A DNA stretch of 64,000 nt from a virus (lineage: Duplodnaviria > Heunggongvirae > Uroviricota > Caudoviricetes), in the IMG/VR virus record IMGVR_UViG_3300027754_000043. One strand, written 5' to 3'. The position numbers and the translations under genes are program-made. This document shows, piece by piece, positions 4,961 through 40,624 of the stretch. The notes below the pieces were generated by a model. It made no database searches. It was not told the DNA's origin and saw only the letters and a program-made list of their open reading frames with translations. Each line of letters opens with the position of its first letter. Position 1 is the first letter of the stretch.

Positions 4961-4963
4961 ATG

Positions 4964-15257: not shown

Positions 15258-15442
15258 TATTTTTTATCCTTGTTTCTATTTTTATATGGCCACATATTTG
15301 CCGTTTTATCATTTAACCATTCCGCTCTATCATCACAACCACAATCTTCATCTAATATTTTAGCAATTGCTTTTGCTAATTGATCTAACCCAGTAGCTGC
15401 AGTTATTTTTTTAACATCATCGCCTAATCCTTTACTTTGCAT
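15257..15442 (-). CDS. hypothetical protein
   Basis: 61-aa ORF. Confidence 0.3.
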   Translation of the reverse strand: MQSKGLGDDVKKITAATGLDQLAKAIAKILDEDCGCDDRAEWLNDKTANMWPYKNRNKDKK

Positions 15443-16535: not shown

Positions 16536-16883
16536 TTATTTCCAAAAGAGCTGAACTAATAATAAAGAAAGAGCTAAACATAATGATATTGCCGTTTTCA
16601 TTGTTATTGCCTCATTTCTAAAAAAATAAGTCATACATGTAAATATGAATATACCAGCAGTGAATGATAAAAATCTACCTGGCCAGAATTGTCCTCCAAA
16701 ACCCATAACAGCATATTTAGTTGCTTCCATAAACAACCAGGTGATAGGAACTCCTAACAACATCAACACAAAACGATATTGCTTAGCCCATTCCCACAAC
16801 AAAGGCCCATTTACCTGGGCCCATACTGCTATTTGTCCTATCAAAAATAAACTTAATGATAAGAATATGTATTTATAATTCAT
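16536..16883 (-). CDS. multi-pass membrane protein (holin candidate)
   Basis: 115 aa with 3-4 hydrophobic helices, immediately upstream of the amidase and abutting it. Confidence 0.45.
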   Translation of the reverse strand: MNYKYIFLSLSLFLIGQIAVWAQVNGPLLWEWAKQYRFVLMLLGVPITWLFMEATKYAVMGFGGQFWPGRFLSFTAGIFIFTCMTYFFRNEAITMKTAISLCLALSLLLVQLFWK

Positions 16884-17557
16884 TACAATGTTTTTAACAT
16901 TTCAATCATTCGAGGACATGGATATATATCTACTTTGTCTTTTCTATAACTGTTATGTGTATATAAACCATTTTCACCACGCAATGCTTTAGTGTTTACT
17001 GAAAAACATTGATCATAATTAAATGTTAAATCGATTGCATATTGATCACGCCAATATGTTATTAATTGTCTTACTGATTCAATTTGTGCATCTGAATAAC
17101 GGTGGTAATATGTATACCCTTTATATGGTGCATCTAATTTAGTAACTTGGTCTGCAGGTACTTCTCGATCAACATAATTATAATACTTACCGTTTTTTAA
17201 TTCTAATTGACCCCAGTTACATATTTCAATACCAATTGAATGTTTATCTAATTCAACATATGGTACTTTATATGCACGGAATACTTCTTGTTTAACACCT
17301 AAATGATATGCCCAAAATTTAGATGAAAATGCTTGGCAAATTTCTCCATCAGCTGATTGTTTATTACCTGGGCCGCTAATTGCTACACACGTTGCAATGC
17401 GACCTCTATCATCTGTATTCCAATTGCTAATTGTATTAATACCAGATGAATTACCAGCTGTATGATGCAATACAATTTGTTTCTTTTCAGCTTCTGCTTT
17501 ATAATACTGTGTTTCCTTTAATGGAACTTGTTTAATTTTACTTGTGTCTAAACTCAT
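16883..17557 (-). CDS. N-acetylmuramoyl-L-alanine amidase (amidase_2/PGRP family) endolysin
   Basis: VLHHTAGNSS, CVAISGPG and HSIGIEICNWG motifs characteristic of T7-lysozyme-like zinc amidases. Confidence 0.7.
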   Translation of the reverse strand: MSLDTSKIKQVPLKETQYYKAEAEKKQIVLHHTAGNSSGINTISNWNTDDRGRIATCVAISGPGNKQSADGEICQAFSSKFWAYHLGVKQEVFRAYKVPYVELDKHSIGIEICNWGQLELKNGKYYNYVDREVPADQVTKLDAPYKGYTYYHRYSDAQIESVRQLITYWRDQYAIDLTFNYDQCFSVNTKALRGENGLYTHNSYRKDKVDIYPCPRMIEMLKTL

Positions 17558-17567
17558 TGGTTTCCTA

Positions 17568-17834
17568 TTATATTATTGGTTCTTCGTCTTTAGCCGTAGG
17601 CTTGTTAGTCGCTTTGTGTTTTGAAAATTTCTCTGCAGTGCTACCTGTCATGGCAGAAATTATAATAACCTCTACTACATTTAATAATCCAGGTGCTGGT
17701 GCAACTGCTCTCGAAAAACATGTTAATATCATCATTATCAATACAGTTAAAAATCCAGTAAATGTGATAACACGTTTAGATGAAATTTCACCGCTATGAC
17801 AATCAGTTAACATACTTTTAACAAATCGTTTCAT
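17568..17834 (-). CDS. small membrane protein (holin/spanin-like)
   Basis: 88 aa with two hydrophobic helices, directly downstream of the amidase. Confidence 0.4.
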   Translation of the reverse strand: MKRFVKSMLTDCHSGEISSKRVITFTGFLTVLIMMILTCFSRAVAPAPGLLNVVEVIIISAMTGSTAEKFSKHKATNKPTAKDEEPII

Positions 17835-17859: not shown

Positions 17860-18648
17860 TTAAATATACTTTAAATTAGTATCAGGGTCATGTTTTATAT
17901 AACTACCCCATTTATAATTTGCGTAAGTGTGACCATTAATCTCTGATTGTTGTCTCAATTCGCCATTTGTTGATGCTGATGCAAAGTGATAAAAATGCAA
18001 ATTCCAATTACGAATCATTTTTAAATCACTTAATTGACATTTCAAAAAGAAATCCCAATCTGCTACCATTCCATTTTCATAATTTTCATCCCAACCACCA
18101 ATTCTCAAATAATCGATCTTTGACATAAAGATTGGTAATGTAGAACCACATTCTTCTTGTTTATCGCCAGATGCATAATGATAATCAAACAACCAAAAAC
18201 GTTCTAAATCAAATGACTCAACGTCTCGACCTAAATCTTCTATAATGAACTGTTTAAACATACTCGGTGTCGGTTCAACTTGGTTTGGTGATATTACACA
18301 ACCAGGTTCCCATACATCTTCCAATGTAGTATCCCAAAACCTAGGAAATACATTATCATCATTAACTATTAATATTTTATTATATCTCGCATTGTATACA
18401 CCTAGGTTAGTCCCCCTACAAAGCCCTTGATTGGATTCGAGTGTCAATATATCAATTGAATCCTTCCACCGTTCTAATACCTCTTTATTTAAGTCATAGA
18501 ACCCATCAACAACTACAATTATTTGATTTTTGTTTTGTTGCCCCTCAATTGCAGATCTTAAACATAAATCTAATAGAGCTGGACTTTTGTATGTAGGTAT
18601 AATTACTGATATCATATGTTTGACCAATTTGTTAATGGAGCTAACCAA
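17860..18648 (-). CDS. glycosyltransferase family 2
   Basis: N-terminal ISVIIPTYKSP...IIVVVDG GT-A signature. Confidence 0.65.
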   Translation of the reverse strand: MVSSINKLVKHMISVIIPTYKSPALLDLCLRSAIEGQQNKNQIIVVVDGFYDLNKEVLERWKDSIDILTLESNQGLCRGTNLGVYNARYNKILIVNDDNVFPRFWDTTLEDVWEPGCVISPNQVEPTPSMFKQFIIEDLGRDVESFDLERFWLFDYHYASGDKQEECGSTLPIFMSKIDYLRIGGWDENYENGMVADWDFFLKCQLSDLKMIRNWNLHFYHFASASTNGELRQQSEINGHTYANYKWGSYIKHDPDTNLKYI

Positions 18649-19334
18649 GCAGTTTCACCGTGTGTTGAATAGCCTGGAATTGATGTAATTAATAATTCAT
18701 TTTGTTCGCGTAATTCTAAGAACATTTTAAAATCATCTGGGTATGAACCTGTAGTCCATTTCCTCAATGTTGGTTCGACTCTTCGCAGTGTTGATACTTT
18801 GCTAGCAAATGTCATTGTGGTTGAATTGGTAATTTTCCAATGAGATGATTTAGATAGATAAACTCGCGTATCCTCAGCACCACCTTCACAATACGGATTA
18901 CCACCGCGAAGTGGATCTAAATATTTATCCGGGTGATCATACAATGAAACAAATGAAGCTCCTAAATCAAATCCTTCTTGTATGATTTTATCGGCGTATA
19001 GTTTATGTAAATAATCATTTTCTACAAAATAAACAATGTCATCATCATTACCCTTTAAAGCCATATCCAATGCTAAGTTAAAAGTACCAGCACCATGTCC
19101 TACCGAAACTTTATGTATATTAATAGGATCGATATATTTGTTAATCATATCAATTGTAGCATTACTACAATTATCTGCAATAATTAATATGTCATGTATA
19201 TGATTGAAAAATACATTGCAAAAATTCTTTAAACAAGTTTCATTGTTAATATAATCTGGTTTTACTTTATTGTAACCAACATCTGAGATTCTATAAATTA
19301 TTTTCATACTTATATTATAAGGAATTAAATTCAA
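18612..19334 (-). CDS. hypothetical protein in the glycan cluster
   Basis: 240-aa ORF embedded between GT genes; no clear motif. Confidence 0.35.
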   Translation of the reverse strand: MNLIPYNISMKIIYRISDVGYNKVKPDYINNETCLKNFCNVFFNHIHDILIIADNCSNATIDMINKYIDPINIHKVSVGHGAGTFNLALDMALKGNDDDIVYFVENDYLHKLYADKIIQEGFDLGASFVSLYDHPDKYLDPLRGGNPYCEGGAEDTRVYLSKSSHWKITNSTTMTFASKVSTLRRVEPTLRKWTTGSYPDDFKMFLELREQNELLITSIPGYSTHGETAWLAPLTNWSNI

Positions 19335-20016
19335 TTATACTAGGAAATTGCATACAATTATATTGTTTTTTTAATCTGTCAGAAATATATAATTCTGGAT
19401 TATTTGTATACAGTGTATCTCCATGTGCATCTATCGAGGTATAATTAGTCCACTTGTTTACTACATACTCAATATTAAGATCCCGGATATCAGGAATAGA
19501 ATCTCCTCCAGTTTCTGATTTATTATAATCAGCACTTATATTCAATGATGATACAGATACGCCATGCAAATTGCAACGATATTTATAATCATTATCTTCA
19601 CCAGCTGCCATAATTACATTTTCATCAAACATACCAACTTTTTTATAAGTATCCCGATGAATACAGAACAACGAAAACTCAAAAGCTCTATCATATGTCC
19701 CTGCAATATTTGTTGGTGTACATAATTGTGTAAGTGCTGCAAGATACTCCTCAGAATATAAATTATCTTCATTGCTAATAATAACTTTTTCGTATCCTAA
19801 TTTATCGAATGCAATTTGACAAATTAAATTCCACCCACCTGCACAACCTAAATTTCTAGAAGTTACATGATGTACATATGGAAGTAATATATCACTATAT
19901 TGTTGTTGACCATTATCAATGATTCGGATTGCAGTGTTAGGGAATCGTTCGGCATCAAACCATGCATCTAAGAACTTAGATGACCCATATCCTAGTATGA
20001 ATAAATTATAGCTCAT
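19315..20016 (-). CDS. GT-A-like glycosyltransferase (putative)
   Basis: N-terminal Rossmann-like start plus an acidic GEDND (DxD-like) motif; weak. Confidence 0.35.
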   Translation of the reverse strand: MSYNLFILGYGSSKFLDAWFDAERFPNTAIRIIDNGQQQYSDILLPYVHHVTSRNLGCAGGWNLICQIAFDKLGYEKVIISNEDNLYSEEYLAALTQLCTPTNIAGTYDRAFEFSLFCIHRDTYKKVGMFDENVIMAAGEDNDYKYRCNLHGVSVSSLNISADYNKSETGGDSIPDIRDLNIEYVVNKWTNYTSIDAHGDTLYTNNPELYISDRLKKQYNCMQFPSIIEFNSL

Positions 20017-20893
20017 TTTTAATTGTATTTAGTATTTCTTCGTCAGTAATAAACGGGTTTAGGTTAATATGCTTACCCGCCGGAAACATATTTGCTGGAC
20101 CTAGTTTAACTTCATTAAATCGTTTCATTACACCATATGGTCCATATAATGCATTCATAAAATCGGTAGTAATTATACATTTAGTACCTACCCCAGCTGC
20201 TAAGTTAGTCATACCACCTTCTTGACCTATCACTAAATCACAGCACTTTATAATAGATGCTGTGTTTGTATAAGTTGATGTAGAATCTAATGATGTATGA
20301 TATTGTGTTACTGTATGATCATATCCCAATGGAATTAAAATACAATTAGATAATTCATTTAAAATATATGAAATATTTCGTCTATTTGTATTAGTATGTG
20401 ACATTATTTGATTAACATTGTTTAATCCAGCTTTATATTCATCTTCTGTATACACAGCTGTTAATGTTTCCCAATTTGCTACATATCCAATTACTTTTGC
20501 ATTAGTCCTATTTAATAAGTCTAATTCATATTTAGTTGACTCATTTAAAGCTGAATCTGTATAAATTGTGTATTCAGGTGTTGGGTTTGTTATCTGACAA
20601 TGTTGTTGATACCATATGGTCGGTTGTATGTCTTGTTTACATTCCGGTAACTCATATATTAAATCATACACAGATTCATCGACATTATCTGGTAATAATA
20701 CTATAGGTCCTTTTTGTTTTGATAAGAATACATTTGAAATATATGGATTATTTTTCAACAATGCATATGGTTGCGGAAATCCTATACAATAATCAACTTG
20801 GCACGTGCCATATTGCTCATGCATCTTTTTTGCAATTGATGATGCAAATAAAATATCACCAATAAATCCGTATGTTTTAATTAATATTTTCAT
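20006..20893 (-). CDS. GT9-like (heptosyltransferase-like) glycosyltransferase, putative
   Basis: The N-terminus MKILIKTYGFIGDILF resembles the GT9 LSALGD start; weak. Confidence 0.3.
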   Translation of the reverse strand: MKILIKTYGFIGDILFASSIAKKMHEQYGTCQVDYCIGFPQPYALLKNNPYISNVFLSKQKGPIVLLPDNVDESVYDLIYELPECKQDIQPTIWYQQHCQITNPTPEYTIYTDSALNESTKYELDLLNRTNAKVIGYVANWETLTAVYTEDEYKAGLNNVNQIMSHTNTNRRNISYILNELSNCILIPLGYDHTVTQYHTSLDSTSTYTNTASIIKCCDLVIGQEGGMTNLAAGVGTKCIITTDFMNALYGPYGVMKRFNEVKLGPANMFPAGKHINLNPFITDEEILNTIKNEL

Positions 20894-21579
20894 TTTATTT
20901 TAATAGTTAAACCCCAAATCATATTTGGAGTATATGGATTACAATACTGTCTATAACTTTCATATGAATTGATATTTGCATCAGCTTCAAACCACTCATT
21001 AAAATCAGATGAAACATAATATTTCTCATCAGCAACTACATAACCAGCTTCTTCTACTTTAGTTTTTATCAATGCTTGTCTATTTGCATCATAATATCGT
21101 AAAAATGGATATCCAGTTTCTTGATAATTCATATATGGGCCGATTGGTAATGTTATTATCAATTTTGAATCGGAATCTTTTAATAATCTACATGATTTCA
21201 ATATACCTCGAATGTCATGATTCCACAATACTATATCTTCTAATTCACTATCAATATCATATGCTTTACCTTCCCAAAACATACCAAAATGTTCAAATAC
21301 TGATATTGAGATTATATAATCATATTTTCTAGATTCATCTAATTTTATAAAGTCTGATTTAATATGTTCCCAATTGGTATTTTTACGAAGCCACGAATCT
21401 GGTAATGATTCTAATATATCAGTAGTTGTAACATTAGTACATCCTAATTCTAATATACTTTCACTAACACCCTCAGATCCACCTTTACATTCGCCAATGA
21501 TTAAAATATCATTATCAATATTTTCAATCTGATTAACAAAGTATGGTACCTCAACTAATTTTGTTCCGATTAATTTCAT
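20890..21579 (-). CDS. SAM-dependent methyltransferase (class I), putative
   Basis: Gly-rich motif I-like LIIGECKGGSEG and a post-II-like DYIISISVFEHF. Confidence 0.4.
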   Translation of the reverse strand: MKLIGTKLVEVPYFVNQIENIDNDILIIGECKGGSEGVSESILELGCTNVTTTDILESLPDSWLRKNTNWEHIKSDFIKLDESRKYDYIISISVFEHFGMFWEGKAYDIDSELEDIVLWNHDIRGILKSCRLLKDSDSKLIITLPIGPYMNYQETGYPFLRYYDANRQALIKTKVEEAGYVVADEKYYVSSDFNEWFEADANINSYESYRQYCNPYTPNMIWGLTIKIK

Positions 21580-22325
21580 ATACCAAATTCATTTTTTACA
21601 CTGTTATAACTATATCCATGCACAAAATCAGTACCATTAAATTCTCGATCAAACTCTTGCTCAATTAAAGAAATCCAATCTTTATCAGATGCATGTCCCC
21701 AATTTTTAACTTTAGTTAGCATTTCTTCTTTAGTTCGAACCCACGAATAGTGATGCATCATAGGATTACCATTCAATGATAATATAGGATAATCGTGACC
21801 ATTAATAAAATTCGGCAAATGATGAAATAGTTGTTGTCGTTCGTGTTCTGATTCTAATTGCCAATTACAATATTGTTTTTTTGTTAACAATCCAGCACCC
21901 TCAACTCTTGTTGCTTGATTTGCTGCATCTCTAAAATACCAATAACATGTAAACCAAAAACTAGCATCTTTATCTTTAATAGTTTCAAACCATGGCATAA
22001 ATTCATCAGACAATATTTCGTCTGTATCTACAAATAGTAACCAATCATTTTTTGCAATATCAGTTCCTAATTTTCTACTTAAATTGTGATAATATCGAGG
22101 AGACTTAGTAGGATCATTCCATTCGAATAATATTATTTTAGTATTTGGATATGAATTAATGATATCATATGATGATTGTAATTTAGATTCATCTTCTGGC
22201 TGACCATTAAAAAAATGAGTACATATTGGAATTATTATTTCATCTGAAAATTTAGATAACTGATCTAAATTACATTTTAAAAATCTATAATCTATAGTAC
22301 TATATTGTAAAATTGTTGATATCAT
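21576..22325 (-). CDS. GT-A-like glycosyltransferase (putative)
   Basis: DxD-containing LLFVDTDEILSD motif. Confidence 0.4.
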   Translation of the reverse strand: MISTILQYSTIDYRFLKCNLDQLSKFSDEIIIPICTHFFNGQPEDESKLQSSYDIINSYPNTKIILFEWNDPTKSPRYYHNLSRKLGTDIAKNDWLLFVDTDEILSDEFMPWFETIKDKDASFWFTCYWYFRDAANQATRVEGAGLLTKKQYCNWQLESEHERQQLFHHLPNFINGHDYPILSLNGNPMMHHYSWVRTKEEMLTKVKNWGHASDKDWISLIEQEFDREFNGTDFVHGYSYNSVKNEFGI

Positions 22326-22328
22326 TTA

Positions 22329-22907
22329 TTAGTTTTTTGAAAAATTTTGAATGTGGTATGTATATACCCCTACCTGTTTAAAATCATATCCCATTTCCGG
22401 TAACATATGTGAAAGTAATGTAACATCATTAGGATATGGATATTTCTGTTCATTTGGATAATCAATGTATGTCGATTTATGAAATGCAACTGGCATATAC
22501 CACCCCATACTATTATATTTAACTTCTCCAATTGGATTATTATTAATATAAGATAAAAATTTGTTATAATCAAACTCTTCTGGCGTTTTTCCACAATCAA
22601 ATTCAACATTTCTGAAATTAACAGGTATTCTGCCAGATTCTATTAATAATCCAGTTACCACTGAATTAGTTGTTGTGTGTTTAATATAAAGTTCATCCCA
22701 ACCCGGACTAACAAACATATCATCATTAATTAACAAAACAACATCATATTTTGCTTTACGTACACCTTCATTATATGCTGCGTATACATCTGTGTTATCT
22801 ACAATTTCTACAATCTCATATGGATTAACTGTGTTTTGTTCGATATATTTTTTGCAAATGTCAATACATCTGCTATTTGATAAATATGGTAAAACTATTG
22901 ATATCAT
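22329..22907 (-). CDS. glycosyltransferase family 2
   Basis: MISIVLPYLSN...VLLINDDMFVSPGW GT-A pattern. Confidence 0.5.
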   Translation of the reverse strand: MISIVLPYLSNSRCIDICKKYIEQNTVNPYEIVEIVDNTDVYAAYNEGVRKAKYDVVLLINDDMFVSPGWDELYIKHTTTNSVVTGLLIESGRIPVNFRNVEFDCGKTPEEFDYNKFLSYINNNPIGEVKYNSMGWYMPVAFHKSTYIDYPNEQKYPYPNDVTLLSHMLPEMGYDFKQVGVYTYHIQNFSKN

Positions 22908-23860
22908 ATTGATGTGTCATTTTGTTTCATCCAATCGATTGTTTGTTGTACACCATCTTTTAAAGAAACTGTTGATTTATAATTTAACTCATTAACTGAT
23001 AATGTAATATCTGGTGTTTTTGTTTTTGTTGTTAACATCTCAGATTCCTTATATGTTATTAAAGAACGATCTGCTCCAGTATATTCCCATATTATATCTG
23101 CTAATGTTTCTATATTGTGATACTCGTTAGATCCAATGTTATAAACACGACCATCAATGAAATTATCTACAATATTCGATATAGCTGTCACAGCATCATC
23201 AATATAAGTACTAGATCTATAATGATTTGTATACACATTAATTGGTAATCCTTTTAATGCGTGATAACAAAATTTACAATTAACCGAACGATATGGGTGA
23301 TAATATTCACCTGGACCATATGTATTGAATAATCGTACAATTACTGCTTCAGTACCATATAATGCTTTTGAATTTGCAATTTGCATCTCATTTGCCCATT
23401 TTGAAATAGCATAATCATTTAACTGCTTAATTTCAAACGTATCCATAATATCTTCTCGCATTACGCCATCAAAATCACCATAAATCTCAGAACTAGAAAA
23501 ATGTACTAATTTAAATTTATATTCTTTTTGAAGTGTTAATAAATTTCGCATTCCGATTGCATTTGATGTCCATAGTTGCTCATAATAATCTTCACCATTC
23601 CATCTACCGAATTCAGCTGCACAATTATATACTAAATCAAATGTTTTACCCGTTTGTGAGAATATTCGATCTAATTGACGATAATCACTAATATCACATC
23701 TACAATAATCTAATGTTTCTCCACTCATTTTTTGAGTAAAACCAATTTCTCCCGGAGCATGATATAAATCAATTCCAAATACATCATGTCCTTTATCTTT
23801 TAATTTTTGTTTTAAAATAGAACCAACTGTTCCTAAAACACCTGTTACTAATATTCTCAT
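22904..23860 (-). CDS. NAD-dependent sugar epimerase/dehydratase (extended SDR)
   Basis: N-terminal ILVTGVLGTVGS Rossmann GxxGxxG and a YxxxK-type SDR layout (YAISKW). Confidence 0.75.
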   Translation of the reverse strand: MRILVTGVLGTVGSILKQKLKDKGHDVFGIDLYHAPGEIGFTQKMSGETLDYCRCDISDYRQLDRIFSQTGKTFDLVYNCAAEFGRWNGEDYYEQLWTSNAIGMRNLLTLQKEYKFKLVHFSSSEIYGDFDGVMREDIMDTFEIKQLNDYAISKWANEMQIANSKALYGTEAVIVRLFNTYGPGEYYHPYRSVNCKFCYHALKGLPINVYTNHYRSSTYIDDAVTAISNIVDNFIDGRVYNIGSNEYHNIETLADIIWEYTGADRSLITYKESEMLTTKTKTPDITLSVNELNYKSTVSLKDGVQQTIDWMKQNDTSI

Positions 23861-23867
23861 TTTTTAC

Positions 23868-24395
23868 TTACTTCTTTTTAAAAATATGTGTACCTTCACC
23901 TACAGTATATTTAACTGTATCATATATCTCAGGCAATACAATTCGATGATATCCATCTTGTTCATATGCATAATTAGTATCATGTATTATAACATATTTA
24001 GGTGTATGCTTATTTAAAATATAATTAGCAACATCACCTCTACAATGCCCAACACCATCTACTAACACAGCATCGAACGAATATTCTTTAAATAATTCAT
24101 CGATACGATCTGTTAATTTAATTGGTAGTTCTGGATTATAATCTACAAAGCCAATTTCATTGTACCAATTAACTTCGCGACCCCAATGTTTATTATGACC
24201 ATAATCTTTTTCAGATACATGGTACCAATCTATTAATTCTGGATATAAGTCATCATTTAATTCGTATGAATATACATACTTAAAGTTTTCTAATAAATAC
24301 TTAGTACCTTCACCTAAGCCAAATTCTAATATTGATATTTTATCTTTTTGTTCAACTGTCGTTTCGACAATATCAATCCAATCTTGATACGGCAT
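23868..24395 (-). CDS. hypothetical protein, possible SAM methyltransferase
   Basis: ILEFGLGEGT resembles MTase motif I; weak. Confidence 0.3.
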   Translation of the reverse strand: MPYQDWIDIVETTVEQKDKISILEFGLGEGTKYLLENFKYVYSYELNDDLYPELIDWYHVSEKDYGHNKHWGREVNWYNEIGFVDYNPELPIKLTDRIDELFKEYSFDAVLVDGVGHCRGDVANYILNKHTPKYVIIHDTNYAYEQDGYHRIVLPEIYDTVKYTVGEGTHIFKKK

Positions 24396-24405
24396 TGTTT
24401 TATCC

Positions 24406-25125
24406 TTATTTTAACGTTTGTAATAAATTTCTATTAATAGCACCTAATTCATGATGATTAGGTAATGCTTCCCAAATTTGTTCATGCCACTGATGGTATA
24501 CTAATTGAGAATCTTCAATTCTACATTGAATATTATTTTTTTGTAAATTGTGAAGAAATGCATCATCGTCATAATATATTCCTGATGCAAAATTATTATC
24601 AAAACCACCAGCATCTCTTAAATCATTTGTATGTATTGCTGCACAAAAATTAAATGGTTGTGGTCTATGAGATGAATGACAATACCATGAAGAGTCTGAA
24701 ATATTAATATCATCAACCGGAGTTGTACGTGTAATAATCTCTGATGATTGTTTTGATAAACTCAATGCACTCATTGCAATATATTCTTTGGATTTAATAT
24801 TATCTAATACATATTGTATGATGTTTGTAGTATGCATACATTCTGCATTTTGAATAATTGTAATCGGAGAGCTAATTAAATTAAATGCTTGATTAAAACC
24901 AATACACGGATTAATCCACCATTTATTATTTGTTTGTATAGAAACTAATTTTATATCTAAGTCAAAATCAGCAAAGTCTTCAAATTGAAGTGGATTCACA
25001 CTCACATCGTCTACAATAATAATATCAACTAAATCTTTTGATTCTTGGTTCTGAATACTCTGTAACGTATTTAATAGTTGTTGTTTTCTATTATAATGCG
25101 TCATACAAATACTAATCTGTTTCAT
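24406..25125 (-). CDS. glycosyltransferase family 2
   Basis: ISICMTHYNR...IIIVDDVS GT-A pattern. Confidence 0.5.
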   Translation of the reverse strand: MKQISICMTHYNRKQQLLNTLQSIQNQESKDLVDIIIVDDVSVNPLQFEDFADFDLDIKLVSIQTNNKWWINPCIGFNQAFNLISSPITIIQNAECMHTTNIIQYVLDNIKSKEYIAMSALSLSKQSSEIITRTTPVDDINISDSSWYCHSSHRPQPFNFCAAIHTNDLRDAGGFDNNFASGIYYDDDAFLHNLQKNNIQCRIEDSQLVYHQWHEQIWEALPNHHELGAINRNLLQTLK

Positions 25126-25135
25126 AACTATTTAT

Positions 25136-25324
25136 TTACTTTTTTATAATAACTGATGTTATACTTTCATTACCCCATGTTTGGGTAACTAACTCAGTTG
25201 GTTTACGATGTATATTTATTTTTTTAATATTTTTTTGCAAAAATTTATTATCATTATCATTTATAAATATTGATTTATATGTGTTTGCTAATTGTGTTAA
25301 ATGTTTCATATTATAATTTTTCAA
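25136..25324 (-). CDS. hypothetical small protein
   Basis: 62-aa ORF between GT genes. Confidence 0.25.
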   Translation of the reverse strand: MKNYNMKHLTQLANTYKSIFINDNDNKFLQKNIKKINIHRKPTELVTQTWGNESITSVIIKK

Positions 25325-26387
25325 GTATTTCTACAATTCTTTTAGATGTATTACCATCCCATTTATATGGTATACTTCCCGTTTTCCATTTACCATCGAA
25401 TAATATATTCATATATATTTTAATGTTATTAGGATTAGTTCCTACTAATTCATTAGTACCATATATAACCGTTTCTGGTCGTTCTGTGTTATTTCGTAAT
25501 GTCATACACGGAATATTCATTACTGTAGTTTCTTCTGTAATACCACCACTATCAGTTATAACGAGTTTTGAATGTTTAACTAAATAATTAAATTCCAAAT
25601 AACTTAAAGGATCTGTTGTATATAAGTTATCATATTGTATATCCAATGATTGTATAATTTTAGATGTTCTAGGATGTACAGGAAATATTATAGGCAATCC
25701 GTGTGAATTATTTACAATTTCATCTAATAATAATTTTAATTGAATTGGATCATCCACATTTGATGGTCTATGCAATGTTATAACAATATATTGTTGATCA
25801 CTAAGATTTAATGTATTCCAAATTTGAGGTTGTTTAAATTTATGTTGATTTTTCAATAATGTATCAATCATAGTATTTCCTACAAAGAAAATAGAATCAT
25901 CAGATACATTAACTGCTTTTAATATAGATGTAGCTATTTCAGATGTAGTAAAAAAATAATCTGTAATTGAATCAGTAACTATCCTGTTAATTTCTTCCGG
26001 CATTGTCATATCACCAGATCTTATTCCGGCTTCTACATGTGCAACTTCAATGTTTAATTTTTTTGCAACAATAGCACACGCCATAGTAGAAGTAACATCG
26101 CCTACAACTAATACCAAATCTGTTGAATTATTGATTAAGAATTCTTCAAATTTAATCATGATTGCAGCTGTTTGTTCTGATTGAGTTCCGCTACCTACCT
26201 GTAAATTAATAGTAGGTTCTGGGATATCTAATTCGTTAAAAAAGTCACCACTCATTTTTTTATCATAGTGCTGACCGGTATGAACTAAATTATACTTAAT
26301 ATTAGTTTTACTCAATTCATGTATAATTGGTGCAATTTTCATAAAGTTAGGTCTAGCACCTGCTACTATAGTTATATGATTGATCAT
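25311..26387 (-). CDS. UDP-N-acetylglucosamine 2-epimerase (non-hydrolysing, WecB/MnaA-like)
   Basis: N-terminal ITIVAGARPNFMKIAPI...VHTGQHYD and a C-terminal ITDSGG epimerase_2 pattern. Confidence 0.8.
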   Translation of the reverse strand: MINHITIVAGARPNFMKIAPIIHELSKTNIKYNLVHTGQHYDKKMSGDFFNELDIPEPTINLQVGSGTQSEQTAAIMIKFEEFLINNSTDLVLVVGDVTSTMACAIVAKKLNIEVAHVEAGIRSGDMTMPEEINRIVTDSITDYFFTTSEIATSILKAVNVSDDSIFFVGNTMIDTLLKNQHKFKQPQIWNTLNLSDQQYIVITLHRPSNVDDPIQLKLLLDEIVNNSHGLPIIFPVHPRTSKIIQSLDIQYDNLYTTDPLSYLEFNYLVKHSKLVITDSGGITEETTVMNIPCMTLRNNTERPETVIYGTNELVGTNPNNIKIYMNILFDGKWKTGSIPYKWDGNTSKRIVEILEKL

Positions 26388-27007
26388 AGTGTGTTGTAAT
26401 AATCGTTTTGTTTTTCTTGTCGTTCTATAGTCTTATGATGTGCTAATGCAAATGCAGAATCTGCAGGAAGATGTGATACTGTTGTGTATCCATTTAATAC
26501 TTCGTGTACTTGATTTACCCATTGTATGTTTGGAGTATTTTTATATATTCTCCACTGATAGTCAGGCCAATTTATCCAATTGTCTTTATTTACTTGCCAA
26601 TTCCATTTATTGATATGTTGATCCGTAATACCTTTTACGGTATTAACTCTTGGTACTCGAATAACATCTACTTCTGAATTTGCTTTTAATATATCCGGTA
26701 ATATTTTACAGATATAATCAGTAGGCATTTCATCAGCATCAATTTGGAAGATGTAGTCTCCCGAACAGAGACTACTTAATTTATTCTTCCAATTTGCAAA
26801 GTGCTTATCGAACTTTGATTTATGCCAAGCAAACTCACCATTTGATGAATGTGCCCTTAAAAAATGTTCGACAGCGGGATCACCATTTGCTTCGTCATAC
26901 AGTATAACTATATTATCTTGGTCTCGTTTGTGCTGAAGCAAAAAGTGCACTAAACGCTGAATTTCAATGAATTCATTACAAACCGTTATTGCGTATGTTA
27001 TTGTCAT
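26384..27007 (-). CDS. glycosyltransferase-like protein
   Basis: ITYAITVCNE...IVILYDE resembles a GT-A start; weak. Confidence 0.35.
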   Translation of the reverse strand: MTITYAITVCNEFIEIQRLVHFLLQHKRDQDNIVILYDEANGDPAVEHFLRAHSSNGEFAWHKSKFDKHFANWKNKLSSLCSGDYIFQIDADEMPTDYICKILPDILKANSEVDVIRVPRVNTVKGITDQHINKWNWQVNKDNWINWPDYQWRIYKNTPNIQWVNQVHEVLNGYTTVSHLPADSAFALAHHKTIERQEKQNDYYNTL

Positions 27008-27031
27008 ATTATTAATATATGAAATTAATAC

Positions 27032-28294
27032 TTATTTACCAACCGTTTCCAATCTAGGCAACTGGATCTTTTTTAGCTCTGGTAATTTTAATTCAACTGA
27101 CTTCGGTATACTTGAAATGGCTTGATCTACAACACTCAACACATCAGTGTATATCTTTGCTACTGCCGTTTTAGTAAATGTGCTATTCGCGAAATATCTT
27201 TGTCTTTTAGCCGGTTCAATCCATTTTTTATAATTCTTATGAACTTCATCAAACATATTGCTAGCATATCTGTAATCAGGTGTAAACCATTTAGCATCTC
27301 CAATTAAAAATTCATTTTGAGCTGACGGGTGTATCGGTGTTAATTGACCTGGTAGTTTACAAATAAATTCTTCTTTTAAGAAATCTGCTTGACCTGAATA
27401 ATGTGGTGCTATAATAGGTTTACCTGTTGTTGAGAATTCTAACAATGGTCTTCCAAATCCTTCTGCTTTAGTAAATGATACCATTGCTTTAATTTTTGGA
27501 TGGTTATACAATGCATTCATTTCAACATCTGTTAAGTCGCCATGCAATAAATATACATTTGGTAAGTTTGCCGTTCCGAATTGTTCTTTAACCATATTGA
27601 TTCTACTTTCAATATCTAAACGATCCATTATACTATATGTAGCCCCACTACATTTTAAAACTAATGCAGGTGCATCCTTTTTATTTTTAAATGTTTCGAA
27701 GAAGTTGTGAATAACACCACCAATATTTTTTCTATCCTCACCTAATTGTCCTTGCAACCAATGTCCTACTGATAAAAATGCAAATGATTCTTCAATTGAA
27801 TCTAATATTGAGAATTGTTCAACATTTTTATTGTTATAAACAGTTTCATCAAAATACTCAGGAATTACTTCAATTTTAGTTGAGATAGTTAAATTGTGTT
27901 TTTTTGCTGTATCAATAAATACTTGTTTTGTGAAATTGCTAGGTACAATTAATAATTGCATTGCATTGATTTTTTCAATCCATTCTGCCGGGCAAATATC
28001 ACCTTCAGTTCCTGCTGTTACTCCAATATTATATTTACCAATTGGTTGCAATTCATTTGGCACTGAAATTTGAACCCAGATATCTGGTTGATCTGGTAGT
28101 GGCAATGGGATAATTCTAAGTTGCAAATCTGTCGAGATTGGGTATGTCATTGGGGTATGACCCCATGGCAATGATACTAATTTAATATCCCATTCAGAAC
28201 CCCTTTGTTCAATTAAATTTGTGATAATTTCACGTGAGTGATGACCATAACCTGATTGTGTCGCAACTGGCGACGCTATAACTACTTTTCTCAT
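27032..28294 (-). CDS. GT-B glycosyltransferase (GT4-like)
   Basis: EGFGRPLLEFSTTGKPII fits the GT4 E-x7-E donor-binding motif. Confidence 0.55.
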   Translation of the reverse strand: MRKVVIASPVATQSGYGHHSREIITNLIEQRGSEWDIKLVSLPWGHTPMTYPISTDLQLRIIPLPLPDQPDIWVQISVPNELQPIGKYNIGVTAGTEGDICPAEWIEKINAMQLLIVPSNFTKQVFIDTAKKHNLTISTKIEVIPEYFDETVYNNKNVEQFSILDSIEESFAFLSVGHWLQGQLGEDRKNIGGVIHNFFETFKNKKDAPALVLKCSGATYSIMDRLDIESRINMVKEQFGTANLPNVYLLHGDLTDVEMNALYNHPKIKAMVSFTKAEGFGRPLLEFSTTGKPIIAPHYSGQADFLKEEFICKLPGQLTPIHPSAQNEFLIGDAKWFTPDYRYASNMFDEVHKNYKKWIEPAKRQRYFANSTFTKTAVAKIYTDVLSVVDQAISSIPKSVELKLPELKKIQLPRLETVGK

Positions 28295-29781
28295 TATGCT
28301 ACTATTCCTGTTCGTTTATAATTCAATTTTTCTACTTTAGTTAATGTGTACATTGGTCTTGATTCTTTAGGAGTTTCAAACAAGTAATCAATCATCGTAA
28401 TCATTGACTGACCCATTTGTTCTGCCGTTAAACCATTTTTCAATGCCCATTCTCTACCAGCATATCCCATTTCATCTCTCAATGTTTCTGGAGTCGTATA
28501 CCAATACATAATTGCATCTGCTACATCTTCAAATCGTACTCGGTCATCAAATATATAAGGTGTTGCTGGTGATCCTTGCAATGATCTATTAGTAGGAAAT
28601 ACTGGTTTAGCCCATACCCCATGCAATTTATACTTACCGGTGTGATTAGTTGCAAATTCACCATCAAAACGAATCCATTCTTCATTTTCATCAACAAACC
28701 CACATTGATCTTGCAACCCACCAGTAACATTGTTAATAATAGGAGTTCCTGACAATATTGCCTCAGTTGAACTAAGTCCCCAACCTTCATTCGAACCAAT
28801 ATTAACTACTACATCGGCTACGTTATACATTGCATTAAGATCTTGTGATGATAGCTTCTGCTCCGAGAATATAATTTTACATTCAGGTGCCAATGTCTTT
28901 GCTACTGCACGTAAATCGGTTCCATTTTCGTCTATTGCTTGAGTATGCATTAATAATGCAACTTTAGACTTTTGATCTGCTGGTAATTGATCAACAAAGT
29001 GTTTAAATGCTAATACTAAATCTCCTGGTTGTTTTCTTCGGATATTTCTATTATTCCACATTACAACAAAATCAACGTTGGTATCTGTTTTAATTTGTTT
29101 AAACATTGATTTATATGCAGTGTCTGCAGAGTCTAATGGTTTAAATACATTGTGATTCAATCCATGTGGAACAAATCCTGTAACTACTTGATTAGATTCT
29201 AAATAACCAGATACAGCATCATTATCATAATCAACAACGTCAAAGCCGTTTTGTTTAAGAACTTCTTTGTGTATATTGTCTGATTGTTTGCTAATTCCCA
29301 TTATTAAATCACAACTACCATAATATGGCGCGTTCCACATTGGGTATGGTAAATCATCCCATATTGAGTAATAAATTAAAGGAATATTAAATGTAGTTTT
29401 AATTTCGTGTTCTAATGCATAAAGCCAAGTCCAATATCGTGGATCTGTAAAGTGAAATATTGCATCAGGTTGTTCTTGATTAATCAATGCAAATAATATA
29501 TTTCGGTCTCCATATCCATTCCATGGTATCAATTTAACAGATACATCTTCTATACCCGTTTCTTCAGCAACTTGTGCCGATAAATCAAAAGCTTGACCAA
29601 CTTCTGGGTGTTGTAATGCTGCACCTAATTGTACCCAATCATAATGCTGTACTGTATTAAAAATAATTTCTTTACTAATCGTTCCAATACCAGATGGCAA
29701 ACGAAAATCGTCTGATAATAATAAAATTTTCTTTTTTGCTGGTTTAGTTGGATTGACTTTACGTAACTTAGGTAATTCCAT
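28294..29781 (-). CDS. GT-B glycosyltransferase (GT4-like)
   Basis: NEGWGLSSTEAILSGTPII fits the GT4 E-x7-E motif. Confidence 0.55.
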   Translation of the reverse strand: MELPKLRKVNPTKPAKKKILLLSDDFRLPSGIGTISKEIIFNTVQHYDWVQLGAALQHPEVGQAFDLSAQVAEETGIEDVSVKLIPWNGYGDRNILFALINQEQPDAIFHFTDPRYWTWLYALEHEIKTTFNIPLIYYSIWDDLPYPMWNAPYYGSCDLIMGISKQSDNIHKEVLKQNGFDVVDYDNDAVSGYLESNQVVTGFVPHGLNHNVFKPLDSADTAYKSMFKQIKTDTNVDFVVMWNNRNIRRKQPGDLVLAFKHFVDQLPADQKSKVALLMHTQAIDENGTDLRAVAKTLAPECKIIFSEQKLSSQDLNAMYNVADVVVNIGSNEGWGLSSTEAILSGTPIINNVTGGLQDQCGFVDENEEWIRFDGEFATNHTGKYKLHGVWAKPVFPTNRSLQGSPATPYIFDDRVRFEDVADAIMYWYTTPETLRDEMGYAGREWALKNGLTAEQMGQSMITMIDYLFETPKESRPMYTLTKVEKLNYKRTGIVA

Positions 29782-29828
29782 TCTGTAACTTTCTATTTTT
29801 GTGTTTATAACTTTATTTAATATAAATA

Positions 29829-30233
29829 TCAGCCAATTATAACTACTGGCTTATTTAACTTAGTAACATTGTTGTGAGCTGTTTTTAATACCGGATCTAA
29901 ACTTGCTTCCGATGTTAATATCATCATGTAATCACATTGCGTTGCAATTAATTTCATTCGGTGATGTAATTGACTAAAATGATATGATTTCCCATAATAT
30001 GACTCTGGCATTGCTGAGTATAAATTATATCCGGAAAATGATGGATTGAACTCACTATAGTTCATACCAAATTCTAATGCATATTTTCTAACATATAAAT
30101 TGGCACCTTCATTACCTCCAGCACCTAATATAGTAAGATCATCTGAAAACTTTGTTTTTAGCATACGAAGTGTTTCTTGAATTTTTCGTTTGTTCTGCCA
30201 ATTTGTATTTCCTATTACTGCAACTTTTGTCAT
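29829..30233 (-). CDS. hypothetical protein (Rossmann/SLOG-like)
   Basis: KVAVIGNT...ILGAGGNEGAN suggests a nucleotide-binding fold; weak. Confidence 0.3.
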   Translation of the reverse strand: MTKVAVIGNTNWQNKRKIQETLRMLKTKFSDDLTILGAGGNEGANLYVRKYALEFGMNYSEFNPSFSGYNLYSAMPESYYGKSYHFSQLHHRMKLIATQCDYMMILTSEASLDPVLKTAHNNVTKLNKPVVIIG

Positions 30234-40581: not shown

Positions 40582-40624
40582 TATATCCTTTTAATTTTTA
40601 ATATAAATATAGTATAAAAAAAAA

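Follow-up and report, generated by a model that had tools for sequence, protein, structure and literature searches.

Chloroviruses glycosylate their capsid with their own cytosolic enzymes. Among bacterial viruses, a precedent is provided by mycobacteriophages, whose glycosyltransferases (GTs) glycosylate virions (Freeman 2023, as cited in PMC12619734), and comparable GT islands have been described in cyanophages and pelagimyophages (PMC7029224, PMC12801897). The flagellin O-GlcNAc transferase GmaR, GalT1 of the Fap1 pathway, and the peptide S-glycosyltransferases SunS/ThuS all act on polypeptide acceptors in the cytoplasm (PMC9638930). Here we analyze a GT island in a caudoviricete genome, of which a stretch of 64 kb (the window) was available. 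A preliminary description of this DNA considered such machinery rare in phages, which is overstated in view of the cyanophage and pelagimyophage islands and of the at least 8000 protein-search matches obtained with the core GT family.

Layout and Surroundings of the Island

The island occupies positions 17860-29781 (~12 kb) and consists of 14 tightly packed, co-directional minus-strand ORFs, which encode ~10 GTs, a WecB UDP-GlcNAc 2-epimerase, and an extended SDR. Neighboring genes share 4-nt ATGA overlaps at five junctions (26384-26387, 22904-22907, 21576-21579, 20890-20893, and 18612-18615, the last of these on condition that the final gene begins at the ATG chosen when L082 was called independently) and a 1-nt overlap at 28294. 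The extent and head-to-tail ATGA packing initially given for the island are thus both correct. Its G+C content (0.27-0.29) is lower than that of its flanks (0.32-0.34). An independent JGI contig carries an identical copy of the island and a Logan contig carries the end containing its first gene, GT4-495; the lineage concerned is one of very abundant freshwater phages.

The surrounding genes function in replication, nucleotide metabolism, and lysis, and the island lies outside any structural module. Its conserved left neighbor, even in relatives at 25-35% identity, is a PD-(D/E)XK nuclease. A small SLOG/YpsA-like protein (29829-30233, minus strand; Pfam YAcAr 2.9e-5, below cutoff) is found directly upstream of GT4-495 in 78 of 80 related loci (76% identity) and is missing from that position in Flavobacterium phage immuto and Microcystis phage Mel-JY01; it appears to be a boundary marker, whose functional tie to the island is putative at most. 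The 47-bp gap upstream of GT4-495 contains the motif TTATATTAA (29817-29825, minus strand), a candidate phage promoter element. The window has 12 copies where 6.4 would be expected, and the coding strand carries 11 of these; short gaps hold six copies, located upstream of GroEL (two), 11491-11877, GT4-495, 39158-39598, and 40192-40581. On the right, the island is bounded by a lysis cassette (16536-17834, minus strand), made of an amidase (16883-17557; phrog_1794 4.7e-9) and two 2-TM proteins with TM-like segments (17568-17834 and 16536-16883). An amidase also follows the island in L036, L064, L073, L113, L119, and L122.

A Conserved Core and a Swappable Cassette

The island is modular, an aspect new in this analysis: a conserved core of three GTs is followed by 8.5 kb of hypervariable DNA. 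The core comprises GT4-495 (28294-29781, 495 aa), a retaining GT-B enzyme of family GT4 with an E-x7-E motif (Pfam Glycos_transf_1 8.4e-7, 29.1 bits; phrog_2170 2.6e-21); its GT4 paralog GT4-420 (27032-28294, 420 aa), also with E-x7-E (phrog_2170 8e-15; Glycos_transf_1 2.1e-5, below cutoff); and GT2-207 (26384-27007, 207 aa), a minimal GT-A/GT2 with a DxD motif (QIDADE; Glycos_transf_2 2.6e-5, above cutoff). GT4-495 is present in all 80 related viral loci (69-87% identity, median 77%), GT4-420 in 74, including 64 in which it spans at least half its length (median 72.5%), and GT2-207 in 57 (median 59%). The trio also occurs in immuto (46%, 44%, and 54% identity for GT4-495, GT4-420, and GT2-207, respectively) and in Mel-JY01 (40-52%, 40%, and 38%). 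The more distant Rhodothermus phage RM378 contains the GT4 pair, at 28% identity for GT4-495 and by profile only for the second gene (p014, 86% probability), as well as a separate GT2-207-like gene (p016, 25%). The recorded hosts of these phages (Flavobacterium, Microcystis, and Rhodothermus) span three phyla and differ in their envelopes. In a profile scan of 185,579 species, each represented by one genome, 21 core GT4 loci were recovered, all on MAG contigs and all with phage synteny (PD-(D/E)XK nuclease, GT4-495, GT4-420), and none in isolate genomes; the scan relied on two peptide patterns, which distant cellular homologs could escape. Within the scanned genomes, the core GT4 family is found only in phage contexts.

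The best solved relative of GT4-495 is the chlorovirus protein B736L, both in the profile search (2.2e-16) and in the fold comparison (2.3e-14; AF2 model, pLDDT 79), followed among fold neighbors by MshA, PimB', GlgM, and the trehalose-6-phosphate and sucrose-phosphate synthases. B736L is also the best PDB match of the GT4-420 profile (6.5e-7). For GT2-207, the best PDB profile match is the GmaR O-GlcNAc transferase domain (1.8e-9, full length), followed by an uncharacterized Leptospira GT (6p61), and then by GalT1 and SunS; the top six Foldseek PDB matches of its AF2 model (pLDDT 93.7) are SunS/ThuS enzymes, with polysaccharide synthases and teichoic-acid GTs in the next tier. GT-A/GT-B similarity is a poor guide to the acceptor, and the GT-B likeness is concentrated mainly in the donor-binding domain.

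Each of the 11 genes behind the core (17860-26387) is found in zero to five of the 80 loci, with the exception of the SDR, which has 15 matches at 27% identity. The corresponding regions of 42 relatives together encode 379 ORFs behind GT2-207, which group into 179 families (88 singletons). Pfam matches in these cassettes include sugar-nucleotide SDRs, GDP-mannose dehydratase, methyltransferases (including FkbM), GT2, GT10, DegT aminotransferases, and hexapeptide acyltransferases.

In the present genome, the cassette begins with WecB (25311-26387), which makes UDP-ManNAc and is found in only one of the 80 loci; the initial assignment to UDP-GlcNAc 2-epimerases is confirmed, the enzyme being of the non-hydrolyzing type (TIGR00236 324 bits, cutoff 210; Pfam Epimerase_2 5e-98). 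The extended SDR (22904-23860; Pfam Epimerase 5e-40) likewise belongs to the NAD-dependent NDP-sugar epimerase/dehydratase family first proposed, and its specificity is not fixed by its score against the dTDP-glucose 4,6-dehydratase model (117 bits, under the cutoff of 365). Two GT2 enzymes lie at 24406-25125 (Glycos_transf_2 6.8e-9; two of 80 loci, 32% identity) and 22329-22907 (192 aa; 1.7e-6, 28.5 bits, cutoff 23.3). The terminal GT2 (17860-18648; Glycos_transf_2 8e-12, above cutoff), semi-conserved and located at the right end of the island, probably starts at the ATG at 18615 (251 aa, as in the L082 gene call) and is 80% identical to its homolog in L020, 49% in Mel-JY01, and 28% to immuto gp169. 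Its semi-conserved partner, a GT-A-like protein (18612-19334; hhalign 89%, 2.3e-6 to the terminal GT2 family; weak TarS match, 0.089), directly precedes it in L020 (79% identity) and Mel-JY01 (29%) as well. The adjacent GT-A glycosyltransferase (19315-20016) matches phrog_29879, "galactosyl transferase" (6.8e-14), and the terminal GT2 family (hhalign 96%). The first tally of at least five GT-A/GT2-like and two GT4-like enzymes is accounted for by four GT2 above the Pfam cutoff, two GT4, and two GT-A recognized through PHROG and hhalign, while 21576-22325 is a weak candidate GT-A (Glyco_tranf_2_4 5.7e-4, below cutoff; hhalign 10% to GT2-207), with no homolog among the 80 loci. The GT9-like label of the GT-B-like protein at 20006-20893 (TIGR02201 1.2e-4) holds for its N-terminal 86 residues, which align with the heptosyltransferase family members WaaC/F/Q/U of E. 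coli (hhalign 97%, 6.8e-11), and not for the remainder. We could not substantiate the two methyltransferase-like proteins, in which only motif-I-like strings are visible by eye, with no support from Pfam, NCBIfam, PHROG, PDB, or hhalign. The one at 23868-24395 (175 aa; ILEFGLGEG) has no significant match in the first four of these resources (best weak matches: Erm 0.029, UvsW_N 1.1e-3) and no homolog among the 80 loci; the one at 20890-21579 (229 aa; ILELGC, DYIISISVFEHF) occurs in three loci (Methyltransf_12 0.023; hhalign to phage methyltransferases at most 12%). Both are left here as proteins of unassigned function.

Nature of the Acceptor

We confirm that export machinery is absent. A hydropathy scan of the window revealed no protein with more than two TM-like segments and no multi-pass membrane protein, and none of the latter is encoded by the 379 ORFs of the 42 related islands; under the same scan, E. 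coli Wzx, Wzy, WaaL, and WcaJ give 5-14 segments. No initiating transferase, flippase, polymerase, ligase, or ABC transporter was found in the 42 islands or the window, and the 379 cassette ORFs include neither a flippase nor a polymerase. A phage could borrow a host initiating transferase and flippase. The preliminary description also took the lack of TM helices in the GTs as an argument for a cytoplasmic acceptor, which is invalid alone: in E. coli K-12, GTs that genuinely act on Und-PP or LPS likewise have 0-1 TM-like segments, so that this trait cannot separate a cytoplasmic from a lipid-linked acceptor. All 14 island proteins resemble soluble enzymes in their acidic pI (4.65-6.43), and a pI above 8.5 is reached by only 3% of the 379 cassette ORFs; in E. 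coli, median values are 9.0 for Und-PP-acting GTs and 5.5 for soluble NDP-sugar enzymes, a control taken from a single bacterium of a different phylum. The GT4-420 homologs of immuto and Mel-JY01 are basic (pI 8.9), a frequent trait of membrane-interface GTs.

Apart from the TM-helix argument, the proposal of a soluble, phage-specified acceptor gains independent, if partial, support from the relatives devoid of multi-pass proteins, the core shared across three host phyla, the phage-only GT4s, the nearest characterized relatives (B736L, GmaR, SunS/ThuS, and GalT1), and the acidic pI. We tentatively favor a phage-autonomous system that glycosylates one or more phage proteins, probably those of the virion surface, in the cytoplasm, with a glycan of constant core and variable outer part. 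Gene content, core/variable architecture, lack of export genes, core GT4 distribution, and closest characterized relatives are observed; what the acceptor is, in which order the steps run, and what purpose they serve are inferred. From host nucleotide sugars, GT4-495, GT4-420, and GT2-207 would assemble an inner core that, like its acceptor, is conserved, and the swappable cassette would extend this core with a lineage-specific outer glycan, here through WecB (UDP-ManNAc), the SDR as a sugar-nucleotide modifier, ~seven further GTs, and the two proteins of unassigned function. The semi-conserved pair at 18612-19334 and 17860-18648 possibly puts on a common cap. No export step would be required because virions assemble in the cytoplasm, and the exchange of cassettes among phages that are otherwise 70-90% identical would yield differing virion "glycotypes." The non-structural genomic setting, the basic GT4-420 homologs, the polysaccharide synthases and teichoic-acid GTs among the second-tier neighbors of GT2-207, and a GT number far above that of mycobacteriophages weigh against this reading. 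The two virion acceptors initially named, the Ser/Thr-rich fiber-like protein at 14457-15257 and the protein at 8498-9883, are conjectural candidates.

Remodeling of the host envelope, the published interpretation for similar pelagimyophage and cyanophage islands (PMC7029224, PMC12801897), is in our opinion possible but rather unlikely. Acting from the cytoplasmic side of the membrane, the phage GTs would use host intermediates that are undecaprenyl-linked or belong to the lipid A-core, and a host initiating transferase, flippase or ABC transporter, and ligase would export the altered glycan, changing LPS, O-glycan, or capsule during infection, with the possible gain of excluding competing phages or keeping progeny from sticking to debris. 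Such a role would suit the O-antigen/capsule-type gene set (NDP-sugar enzymes, GT2, GT4, GT9-like, WecB), the low G+C content and hypervariability typical of such loci, the lack of TM helices in true lipid-linked-acceptor GTs, and the pI of the immuto and Mel-JY01 GT4-420 homologs. However, all five kinds of export gene are missing from the 42 islands and the window, and host export enzymes would therefore need to accept very many different phage-specified glycans; moreover, the core trio is kept across hosts of three phyla with differing envelopes and occurs in none of the isolate bacterial genomes scanned, the nearest characterized relatives of GT2-207 are protein/peptide GTs, and the island proteins are all acidic. 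Less probable still is another soluble or non-virion acceptor, such as a non-structural protein of host or phage, a phage protein that is secreted, a lipid, or a small molecule, or else the synthesis of a free oligosaccharide. An example of a secreted candidate is the signal-peptide protein at 8498-9883, whose earlier "T9SS" label finds no Pfam or NCBIfam match. The missing export genes and the acidic, soluble island proteins agree with this possibility, and MshA, PimB', GlgM, and the sugar-phosphate synthases, close to GT4-495 in fold, use small soluble or lipid acceptors, but GT-B similarity is mostly confined to the donor-binding domain, a metabolic small-molecule role is hard to square with a hypervariable multi-sugar product, and the relatives show no island-linked carrier or target gene.

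Modified DNA, the other acceptor initially put forward, is disfavored and appears very improbable to us. The GTs would glycosylate a modified phage base and protect it from host nucleases, as in the glucosyl-hmC of T-even phages, the arabinosyl-5hoC of RB69/DLP3, or TET-dependent 5hmC glycans. Phage DNA-glycosylation clusters may indeed hold GT-A/GT-B enzymes related to LPS/teichoic-acid GTs along with nucleotide-sugar genes, and their glycans reach up to three sugars (bioRxiv 10.1101/2023.12.21.572611; PMC13326640); the DNA-metabolism genes around the island, the conserved PD-(D/E)XK nuclease, and the conservation across host phyla expected of a phage-specified acceptor would also fit. Yet known routes need a hydroxylated pyrimidine, made via a thymidylate-synthase homolog or via a methyltransferase and TET, and no TET, C5-methyltransferase, or hydroxymethylase route was found among the scanned ORFs of the 64-kb window (genome ~160 kb). 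The immuto ThyA homolog shows the Asn and the C-terminus that mark true thymidylate synthases; the start of a gene 85% identical to it is present in the window. Furthermore, a different DNA-modification route is present, the 7-deazaguanine pathway (FolE, QueD, QueE, and a weak DpdA-like protein; immuto encodes DpdA, QueC, and QueF), and ~ten GTs with methyl-, amino-, and acetyltransferases in 179 families go far past any known DNA glycan.

Comparison with Known Glycosylation Systems

Among known systems, O-antigen and capsule loci have exactly the gene repertoire of the island, and hypervariability is their hallmark too, which counts against virion proteins as acceptors. The chlorovirus protein B736L is the nearest solved relative of both core GT4s. 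In mycobacteriophages, two to four GTs have been reported, far fewer than the ~ten encoded here.

Gene content and modular organization of the island

Fourteen ORFs, all on the minus strand, occupy positions 17860–29781, with ATGA overlaps at five junctions. Those beginning at 17860, 22329, 24406, and 26384 matched Pfam Glycos_transf_2 above cutoff (GT2), and the last of them, GT2-207 (26384–27007), also shows the DxD motif (in QIDADE) and an AF2 model matching GT-A enzymes, as in CAZy family GT2. The ORFs at 28294 and 27032 encode the GT4 proteins GT4-495 (28294–29781) and GT4-420 (27032–28294), which scored 29.1 bits (above cutoff) and 24.6 bits (below cutoff) with Pfam Glycos_transf_1 and which both carry the E-x7-E motif of CAZy family GT4 (EGWGLSSTE and EGFGRPLLE, respectively). 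Further glycosyltransferases (GTs) were assigned at 19315 (GT-A, by PHROG and hhalign), 18612 (GT-A-like, by hhalign), and 20006 (GT9-like for the N-terminal domain only, by hhalign), along with a possible GT-A at 21576 (weak Pfam match). The ORF at 22904 is an extended SDR with no NDP-sugar specificity assigned, and that at 25311 is a WecB above the equivalog cutoff, scoring 324 bits with TIGR00236 (cutoff 210) against 88 bits with the NeuC model (cutoff 236); as this 2-epimerase matches WecB and not NeuC, we discarded the idea of a sialic-acid-type pathway. On an identical JGI contig, an independent gene call adds a 62-aa ORF (25136–25324, minus strand) to the 185 bp that separate WecB from the following GT2.

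Two ORFs (20890–21579 and 23868–24395) had been described as methyltransferase-like, a label that was not borne out: they contain motif-like strings only, and HMM, PDB, and profile tests were negative or marginal. Lenient Pfam (E-value up to 5) and NCBIfam searches gave no methyltransferase support, hhalign comparison with two annotated phage methyltransferases was negative, and single-sequence PDB searches of 18612, 20006, 20890, and 23868 returned nothing significant. We also dropped the idea of a GtfA/GtfB-type pair, in which one catalytic and one degenerate GT4 glycosylate serine-rich-repeat adhesins, because both GT4s keep E-x7-E and because sequence and fold searches returned neither GtfA nor GtfB.

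A scan of IMG/VR with GT4-495 gave 151 relatives, 80 of which were compared by mapping all window proteins onto them. The left backbone (clamp loader, PD-(D/E)XK nuclease, and SLOG-like protein) is syntenic, with 65–85% identity. GT4-495 was found in all 80 loci (77% identity), GT4-420 in 64 (72%), and GT2-207 in 57 (59%), and each of the next eleven island genes in zero to five. Synteny returns at the lysis cassette in loci L036, L064, and L073, as well as in L113, L119, and L122, identified by an amidase-anchored search that yielded mostly unrelated phages and only about six loci of this lineage. The variable part behind GT2-207 (17860–26387 in the window) is 5.6–8.5 kb long and lower in G+C; in 42 relatives, it comprises 379 ORFs falling into 179 families at 40% identity, 88 of which are singletons. 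A Pfam scan of 150 family representatives identified nucleotide-sugar SDRs, methyltransferases including FkbM, GT2, GT10, DegT aminotransferases, and hexapeptide acyltransferases, the largest family being GDP-mannose 4,6-dehydratase (17 loci). The ORFs at 18612 and 17860 form a semi-conserved pair at the end of the island, with 79% and 80% identity in locus L020 and 29% and 49% in Microcystis phage Mel-JY01. The island is a modular glycan-assembly system, made of a conserved phage-specific core and a hypervariable outer cassette, without an export step. Its gene content was already known in kind; what is new is the architecture, namely a deep phage-only GT4-GT4-GT2 core with a swappable cassette, in an abundant lineage that has a cultured relative.

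Distribution of the core and genomic surroundings

Judged by the first gene of the island, the nearest cultured phages are Flavobacterium phage vB_FspM_immuto (hereafter immuto; 160 kb), Mel-JY01, and Rhodothermus phage RM378, whose hosts are recorded as members of Bacteroidota, Cyanobacteriota, and Rhodothermota, respectively. Immuto has the same gene order (PD-(D/E)XK, GT4, GT4, small ORF, GT2), followed by an 11-kb cassette of other content (WecE-type aminotransferases, a methyltransferase, a PglD-like acyltransferase, an epimerase, and GTs), and in Mel-JY01 the trio is accompanied by a short cassette. In RM378, the GT4-495 homolog shows 28% identity, its neighbor fits the GT4-420 profile (86%), and a GT2-207-like gene lies separately. 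We found no published discussion of the immuto or Mel-JY01 island. The GT4-495 homolog of Mel-JY01 is annotated as two adjacent CDSs (L084, 13995–15486; PP395634.1, 83441–84932); the split would be due to a frameshift or sequencing error, or else mark a pseudogene.

When one genome from each of 185,579 species was scanned with a profile, relying on two peptide patterns that distant homologs may escape, 21 core-GT4 loci were detected, none of them in an isolate genome. All 21 (L086–L106) are MAG contigs with the phage synteny PD-(D/E)XK, GT4-495, GT4-420. Their labels contradict each other (Methanobacteriota, Woesearchaeota, Saccharibacteria, Pelagibacter, Saprospiraceae, Flavobacteriales, and others), a sign that public MAGs contain mis-binned contigs of this phage lineage. 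In a protein database search, GT4-495 and GT2-207 each had at least 8000 matches; the lineage is therefore very abundant. The contig carrying the identical island is a JGI freshwater contig, and a Logan contig carries the GT4-495 end. The island had no megablast match among 50,697 phage records, and no sequence match was seen in cultured cyanomyophages except a weak one in S-EIVl.

Nearly all window genes lie on the minus strand, with a G+C near 0.32. They include a family-B DNA polymerase (43.6% identity to Mel-JY01 and about 30% to T4-like cyanophages), a clamp loader, ribonucleotide reductase, DnaB, an exonuclease, UvsX, SSB, and endolysin/amidase genes. A phage GroEL (2764–4380, minus strand; phrog_5725, 2e-178) shares the 2764–8427 stretch with a CobT/CobS-like pair, formed by a 711-aa CobT-like protein adjoining the GroEL region (4964–7099, minus strand) and a CobS/MoxR-type AAA+ ATPase (7276–8427, minus strand). 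Between the lysis cassette and a fibre-like gene lies a 357-aa protein (15432–16505, minus strand; phrog_36119, 1.4e-47) whose N-terminal domain is of the Pol-beta nucleotidyltransferase type and which keeps about 60% identity in relatives. Directly upstream of GT4-495, a SLOG/YpsA-like small protein (29829–30233, minus strand; Pfam YAcAr, below cutoff) is found in 78 of the 80 relatives (76% identity); neither immuto nor Mel-JY01 has it there.

The window contains 12 copies of the motif TTATATTAA (6.4 expected), 11 of them on the coding strand, with minus-strand sites at 4394–4422, 11898–11906, 29817–29825, 39611–39619, and 40598–40606. Six copies immediately precede genes, in short gaps, two of them before GroEL and one each before 11491–11877, GT4-495, 39158–39598, and 40192–40581, making this motif a candidate phage promoter element. 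Scanning for sigma-70 promoters and terminators revealed no excess over shuffles.

Capsid, sheath, and tube genes were not recognized among the window ORFs scanned. The fibre-like protein (266 aa; 14457–15257, minus strand) has the highest Ser+Thr content of the window (28%) and repeated (T/S)AS(Y/F)A motifs. It is present in only two amidase-anchored relatives, at 38% identity where its neighbors show 56–90%, and had no match in Pfam, PHROG, or the phage database (tblastn against phage records); we regard it as a candidate fast-evolving fibre-like receptor-binding protein or glycan acceptor. A 461-aa Thr/Ser/Asn-rich protein (8498–9883, minus strand) with an N-terminal signal-like hydrophobic segment had been labeled a T9SS protein. 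Its C-terminus resembles a Bacteroidota sorting domain by eye only, as neither Pfam (lenient, E-value up to 5) nor NCBIfam detects a T9SS C-terminal domain, and the label is not supported.

Where the glycans may be attached

The preliminary description had stressed that the island lacks export machinery, and this absence is real because the same hydropathy scan picks up the E. coli controls Wzx, Wzy, WaaL (6–14 segments), and WcaJ (5 segments), nothing comparable being present in the window. No protein exceeds two hydrophobic segments throughout the 64 kb, and the only such segment among the island proteins is a marginal internal one in WecB. Hence no flippase, polymerase, ABC exporter, or ligase was recognized, either in the window (no ORF with more than two TM-like segments) or in 42 related islands (none with more than four among 379 ORFs), where multi-pass membrane proteins are likewise absent from the cassettes and the ORFs with two to four segments are nearly all small, holin-like, and adjoining the amidase. 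Initiating phosphoglycosyltransferases (WbaP/WecA/PglC type) had no Pfam or NCBIfam match in the island; in the relatives, 14 of the 379 ORFs have one hydrophobic segment, and none of these falls into a family of this type among the 25 commonest of the 103 matched. Like a Wzx/Wzy- or ABC-dependent polysaccharide locus, the island groups GTs and nucleotide-sugar genes in one operon-like block, but the initiating and export genes of such a locus were not found. A serotype-converting Gtr cassette (GtrA flippase, membrane-anchored GtrB, and polytopic GtrC) does not fit an island devoid of membrane proteins, and synthase-dependent polysaccharide was rejected, the GT2s having no membrane segments. 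The lack of TM helices in the GTs had also been taken as an argument for a cytoplasmic acceptor. Alone, it is insufficient, since genuine E. coli LPS, O-antigen, and colanic-acid GTs show zero or one segment in the same scan.

The core enzymes give additional indications. With the GT4-495 profile, the first PDB match is B736L of chlorovirus NY-2A (2.2e-16; next match 9e-8), which is also the top PDB match of the GT4-420 profile; the AF2 model of GT4-495 (pLDDT 79) likewise matches B736L best over its full length (2.3e-14), followed by generic retaining GT-B enzymes including MshA and PimB'. The GT2-207 profile aligns over its full length with the GT domain of Listeria GmaR (1.8e-9), then with an uncharacterized Leptospira GT, GalT1, and SunS, and the top six PDB matches of its AF2 model (pLDDT 93.7) are SunS/ThuS peptide S-glycosyltransferases, polysaccharide synthases coming one tier lower. 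In GmaR, the N-terminal ~180 residues transfer GlcNAc to flagellin (PMC9638930). These distant similarities (15–18% identity), unable to fix the acceptor, do lean toward polypeptide substrates and a capsid-glycosylating virus group. All island proteins are acidic (pI 4.65–6.43), and pI exceeds 8.5 in 3% of the 379 cassette ORFs; median values in E. coli K-12 are 9.0 for Und-PP-acting GTs, 7.7 for LPS-core GTs, and 5.5 for soluble nucleotide-sugar enzymes. This favors soluble enzymes only weakly, because acidity characterizes the phage proteome as a whole and because immuto and Mel-JY01 have basic GT4-420 homologs.

Phage DNA might also receive sugars. Known DNA glycosylation requires 5hmC, 5hoC, or 5hmU, made via a thymidylate-synthase homolog or a methyltransferase and TET (PMC13326640; bioRxiv 10.1101/2023.12.21.572611). 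The left window edge holds a minus-strand ThyA fragment (2–205) of 68 residues, 85% identical to part of immuto gp224, a ThyA homolog that is unusually long (423 aa, with insertions) and has the Asn of "PFNIASY" and the canonical C-terminus, as in true thymidylate synthase. The scan of window ORFs, covering 64 of about 160 kb, revealed no dCMP/dUMP hydroxymethylase, 5hoC synthase, TET, or C5-methyltransferase, and no island ORF matched the T4 alpha- or beta-glucosyltransferase families in Pfam. The window encodes QueE-like (44428–45240), QueD-like (45780–46256), and FolE GTP cyclohydrolase (46256–46960) proteins and a 416-aa protein with a weak match (2.9e-5) to tRNA-guanine transglycosylase/DpdA (35949–37199), all on the minus strand, and immuto carries DpdA, QueC, QueD, QueE, QueF, and FolE. 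FolE, QueD, QueE, and the weak DpdA/TGT-like protein suggest 7-deazaguanine modification of phage DNA. With this route found in place of the hydroxylated-base route, and with a cassette whose scale and chemistry go beyond any known DNA glycan, DNA glycosylation by the island GTs appears quite improbable; as the inspection covered 64 kb of about 160 kb, DNA counts as disfavored and not as excluded. Glycosylation of 7-deazaguanine-modified DNA itself is very unlikely.

On balance, we tentatively read the island, with somewhat less than even confidence, as a system for cytoplasmic glycosylation of phage proteins, probably those of the virion. It holds phage-encoded soluble GTs without export genes, as in mycobacteriophages, and virus-encoded cytosolic GTs with nucleotide-sugar enzymes, as in chloroviruses. 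Alternatively, the enzymes could remodel host envelope glycans through the export machinery of the host, the reading offered for similar islands (PMC7029224; PMC12801897); we consider it possible, if rather doubtful, and acceptors of other kinds unlikely. Returning to glycosylation of virion proteins, a more specific version, advanced with greater reserve, is that an ancient phage-specific GT4-GT4-GT2 core, which Bacteroidota and Cyanobacteria phages have in common and a Rhodothermota phage shares more distantly, primes a conserved virion protein, on which the freely exchanged cassette would write a hypervariable "glycan serotype" displayed by the virions of a freshwater phage lineage that is among the most abundant.

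If true, the lineage would possess a viral equivalent of the O-antigen diversity of bacteria, which would imply that host defenses, adsorption partners, or grazers exert strong diversifying selection on the phage surface. Glycosylated virions would mean strain-specific glycan coats on abundant freshwater phages, with a bearing on adsorption, defense evasion, particle stickiness, and carbon flux. Aquatic phages have long been seen to carry large blocks of "LPS-like" genes, usually explained, without data, by host-surface modification. The present lineage sharpens the question, as it combines a phage-only GT trio, a cassette differing in nearly every relative, a constant lack of export genes, and nearest characterized relatives that either have polypeptide substrates or belong to a virus that glycosylates its capsid. 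Because a cultured relative with the same architecture exists (immuto, host Flavobacterium sp. LMO8), this old question is directly testable.

Comparison with known glycosylation systems

The acceptor segments of mycobacteriophages are C-terminal extensions of structural proteins. In virion glycosylation of the Che8/Corndog type, glycans are put on capsid and tail-tube subunits in the cytoplasm (Freeman et al. 2023, as cited in PMC12619734) by phage-encoded soluble GTs, without export machinery, and the GT genes lie outside the structural module, as they do here. Two to four GTs are present in those systems, for which no core with a hypervariable cassette has been reported, whereas the present island has about ten GTs plus nucleotide-sugar enzymes and belongs to a Bacteroidota-type myophage.

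Chlorovirus (PBCV-1/NY-2A) protein B736L (PDB 3OY2) comes first among solved structures for both core GT4s when compared by sequence profile and, for GT4-495, also when compared by fold. Chloroviruses have their own cytosolic GTs and nucleotide-sugar enzymes, including the GDP-mannose 4,6-dehydratase found in 17 related islands. Their glycans consist of a conserved core with strain-specific decoration. However, they are giant viruses of eukaryotes with scattered GT genes, whereas the island is one block, and B736L is only 18% identical and of putative function. Similarly, the model of GT2-207 is nearest to SunS/ThuS (about 3e-11, TM about 0.68), but GT2-207 is a bare 207-aa catalytic domain, 15–18% identical to enzymes of the GmaR, SunS/ThuS, and GalT1 type, which add TPR or peptide-binding domains giving substrate specificity.

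Phage DNA glycosylation (T4 alpha/beta-glucosyltransferases, RB69/DLP3 arabinosylation, and TET-dependent GTs) also involves soluble phage GTs, a phage-made acceptor, and sometimes nucleotide-sugar genes, but the island is far larger in scale and diversity. Bacterial O-antigen, capsule, and colanic acid clusters share with it the enzyme classes (GT2, GT4, GT9-like, WecB, SDR, methyl-, amino-, and acetyltransferases), the low G+C, and the hypervariability; unlike them, it has no phosphoglycosyltransferase, Wzx, Wzy, ligase, or ABC transporter, its GTs are acidic rather than basic, and its context is phage only. The GT islands of pelagimyophages and cyanomyophages (PMC7029224; PMC12801897) likewise occur in large aquatic T4-like myophages, with many GTs and nucleotide-sugar enzymes in hypervariable regions and no flippase reported. 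Those islands lie in a host-recognition cluster by the tail fibres and are dominated by GT8, whereas the present one is located after a PD-(D/E)XK nuclease and before the lysis cassette, and is headed by a conserved phage-specific GT4-GT4-GT2 trio.
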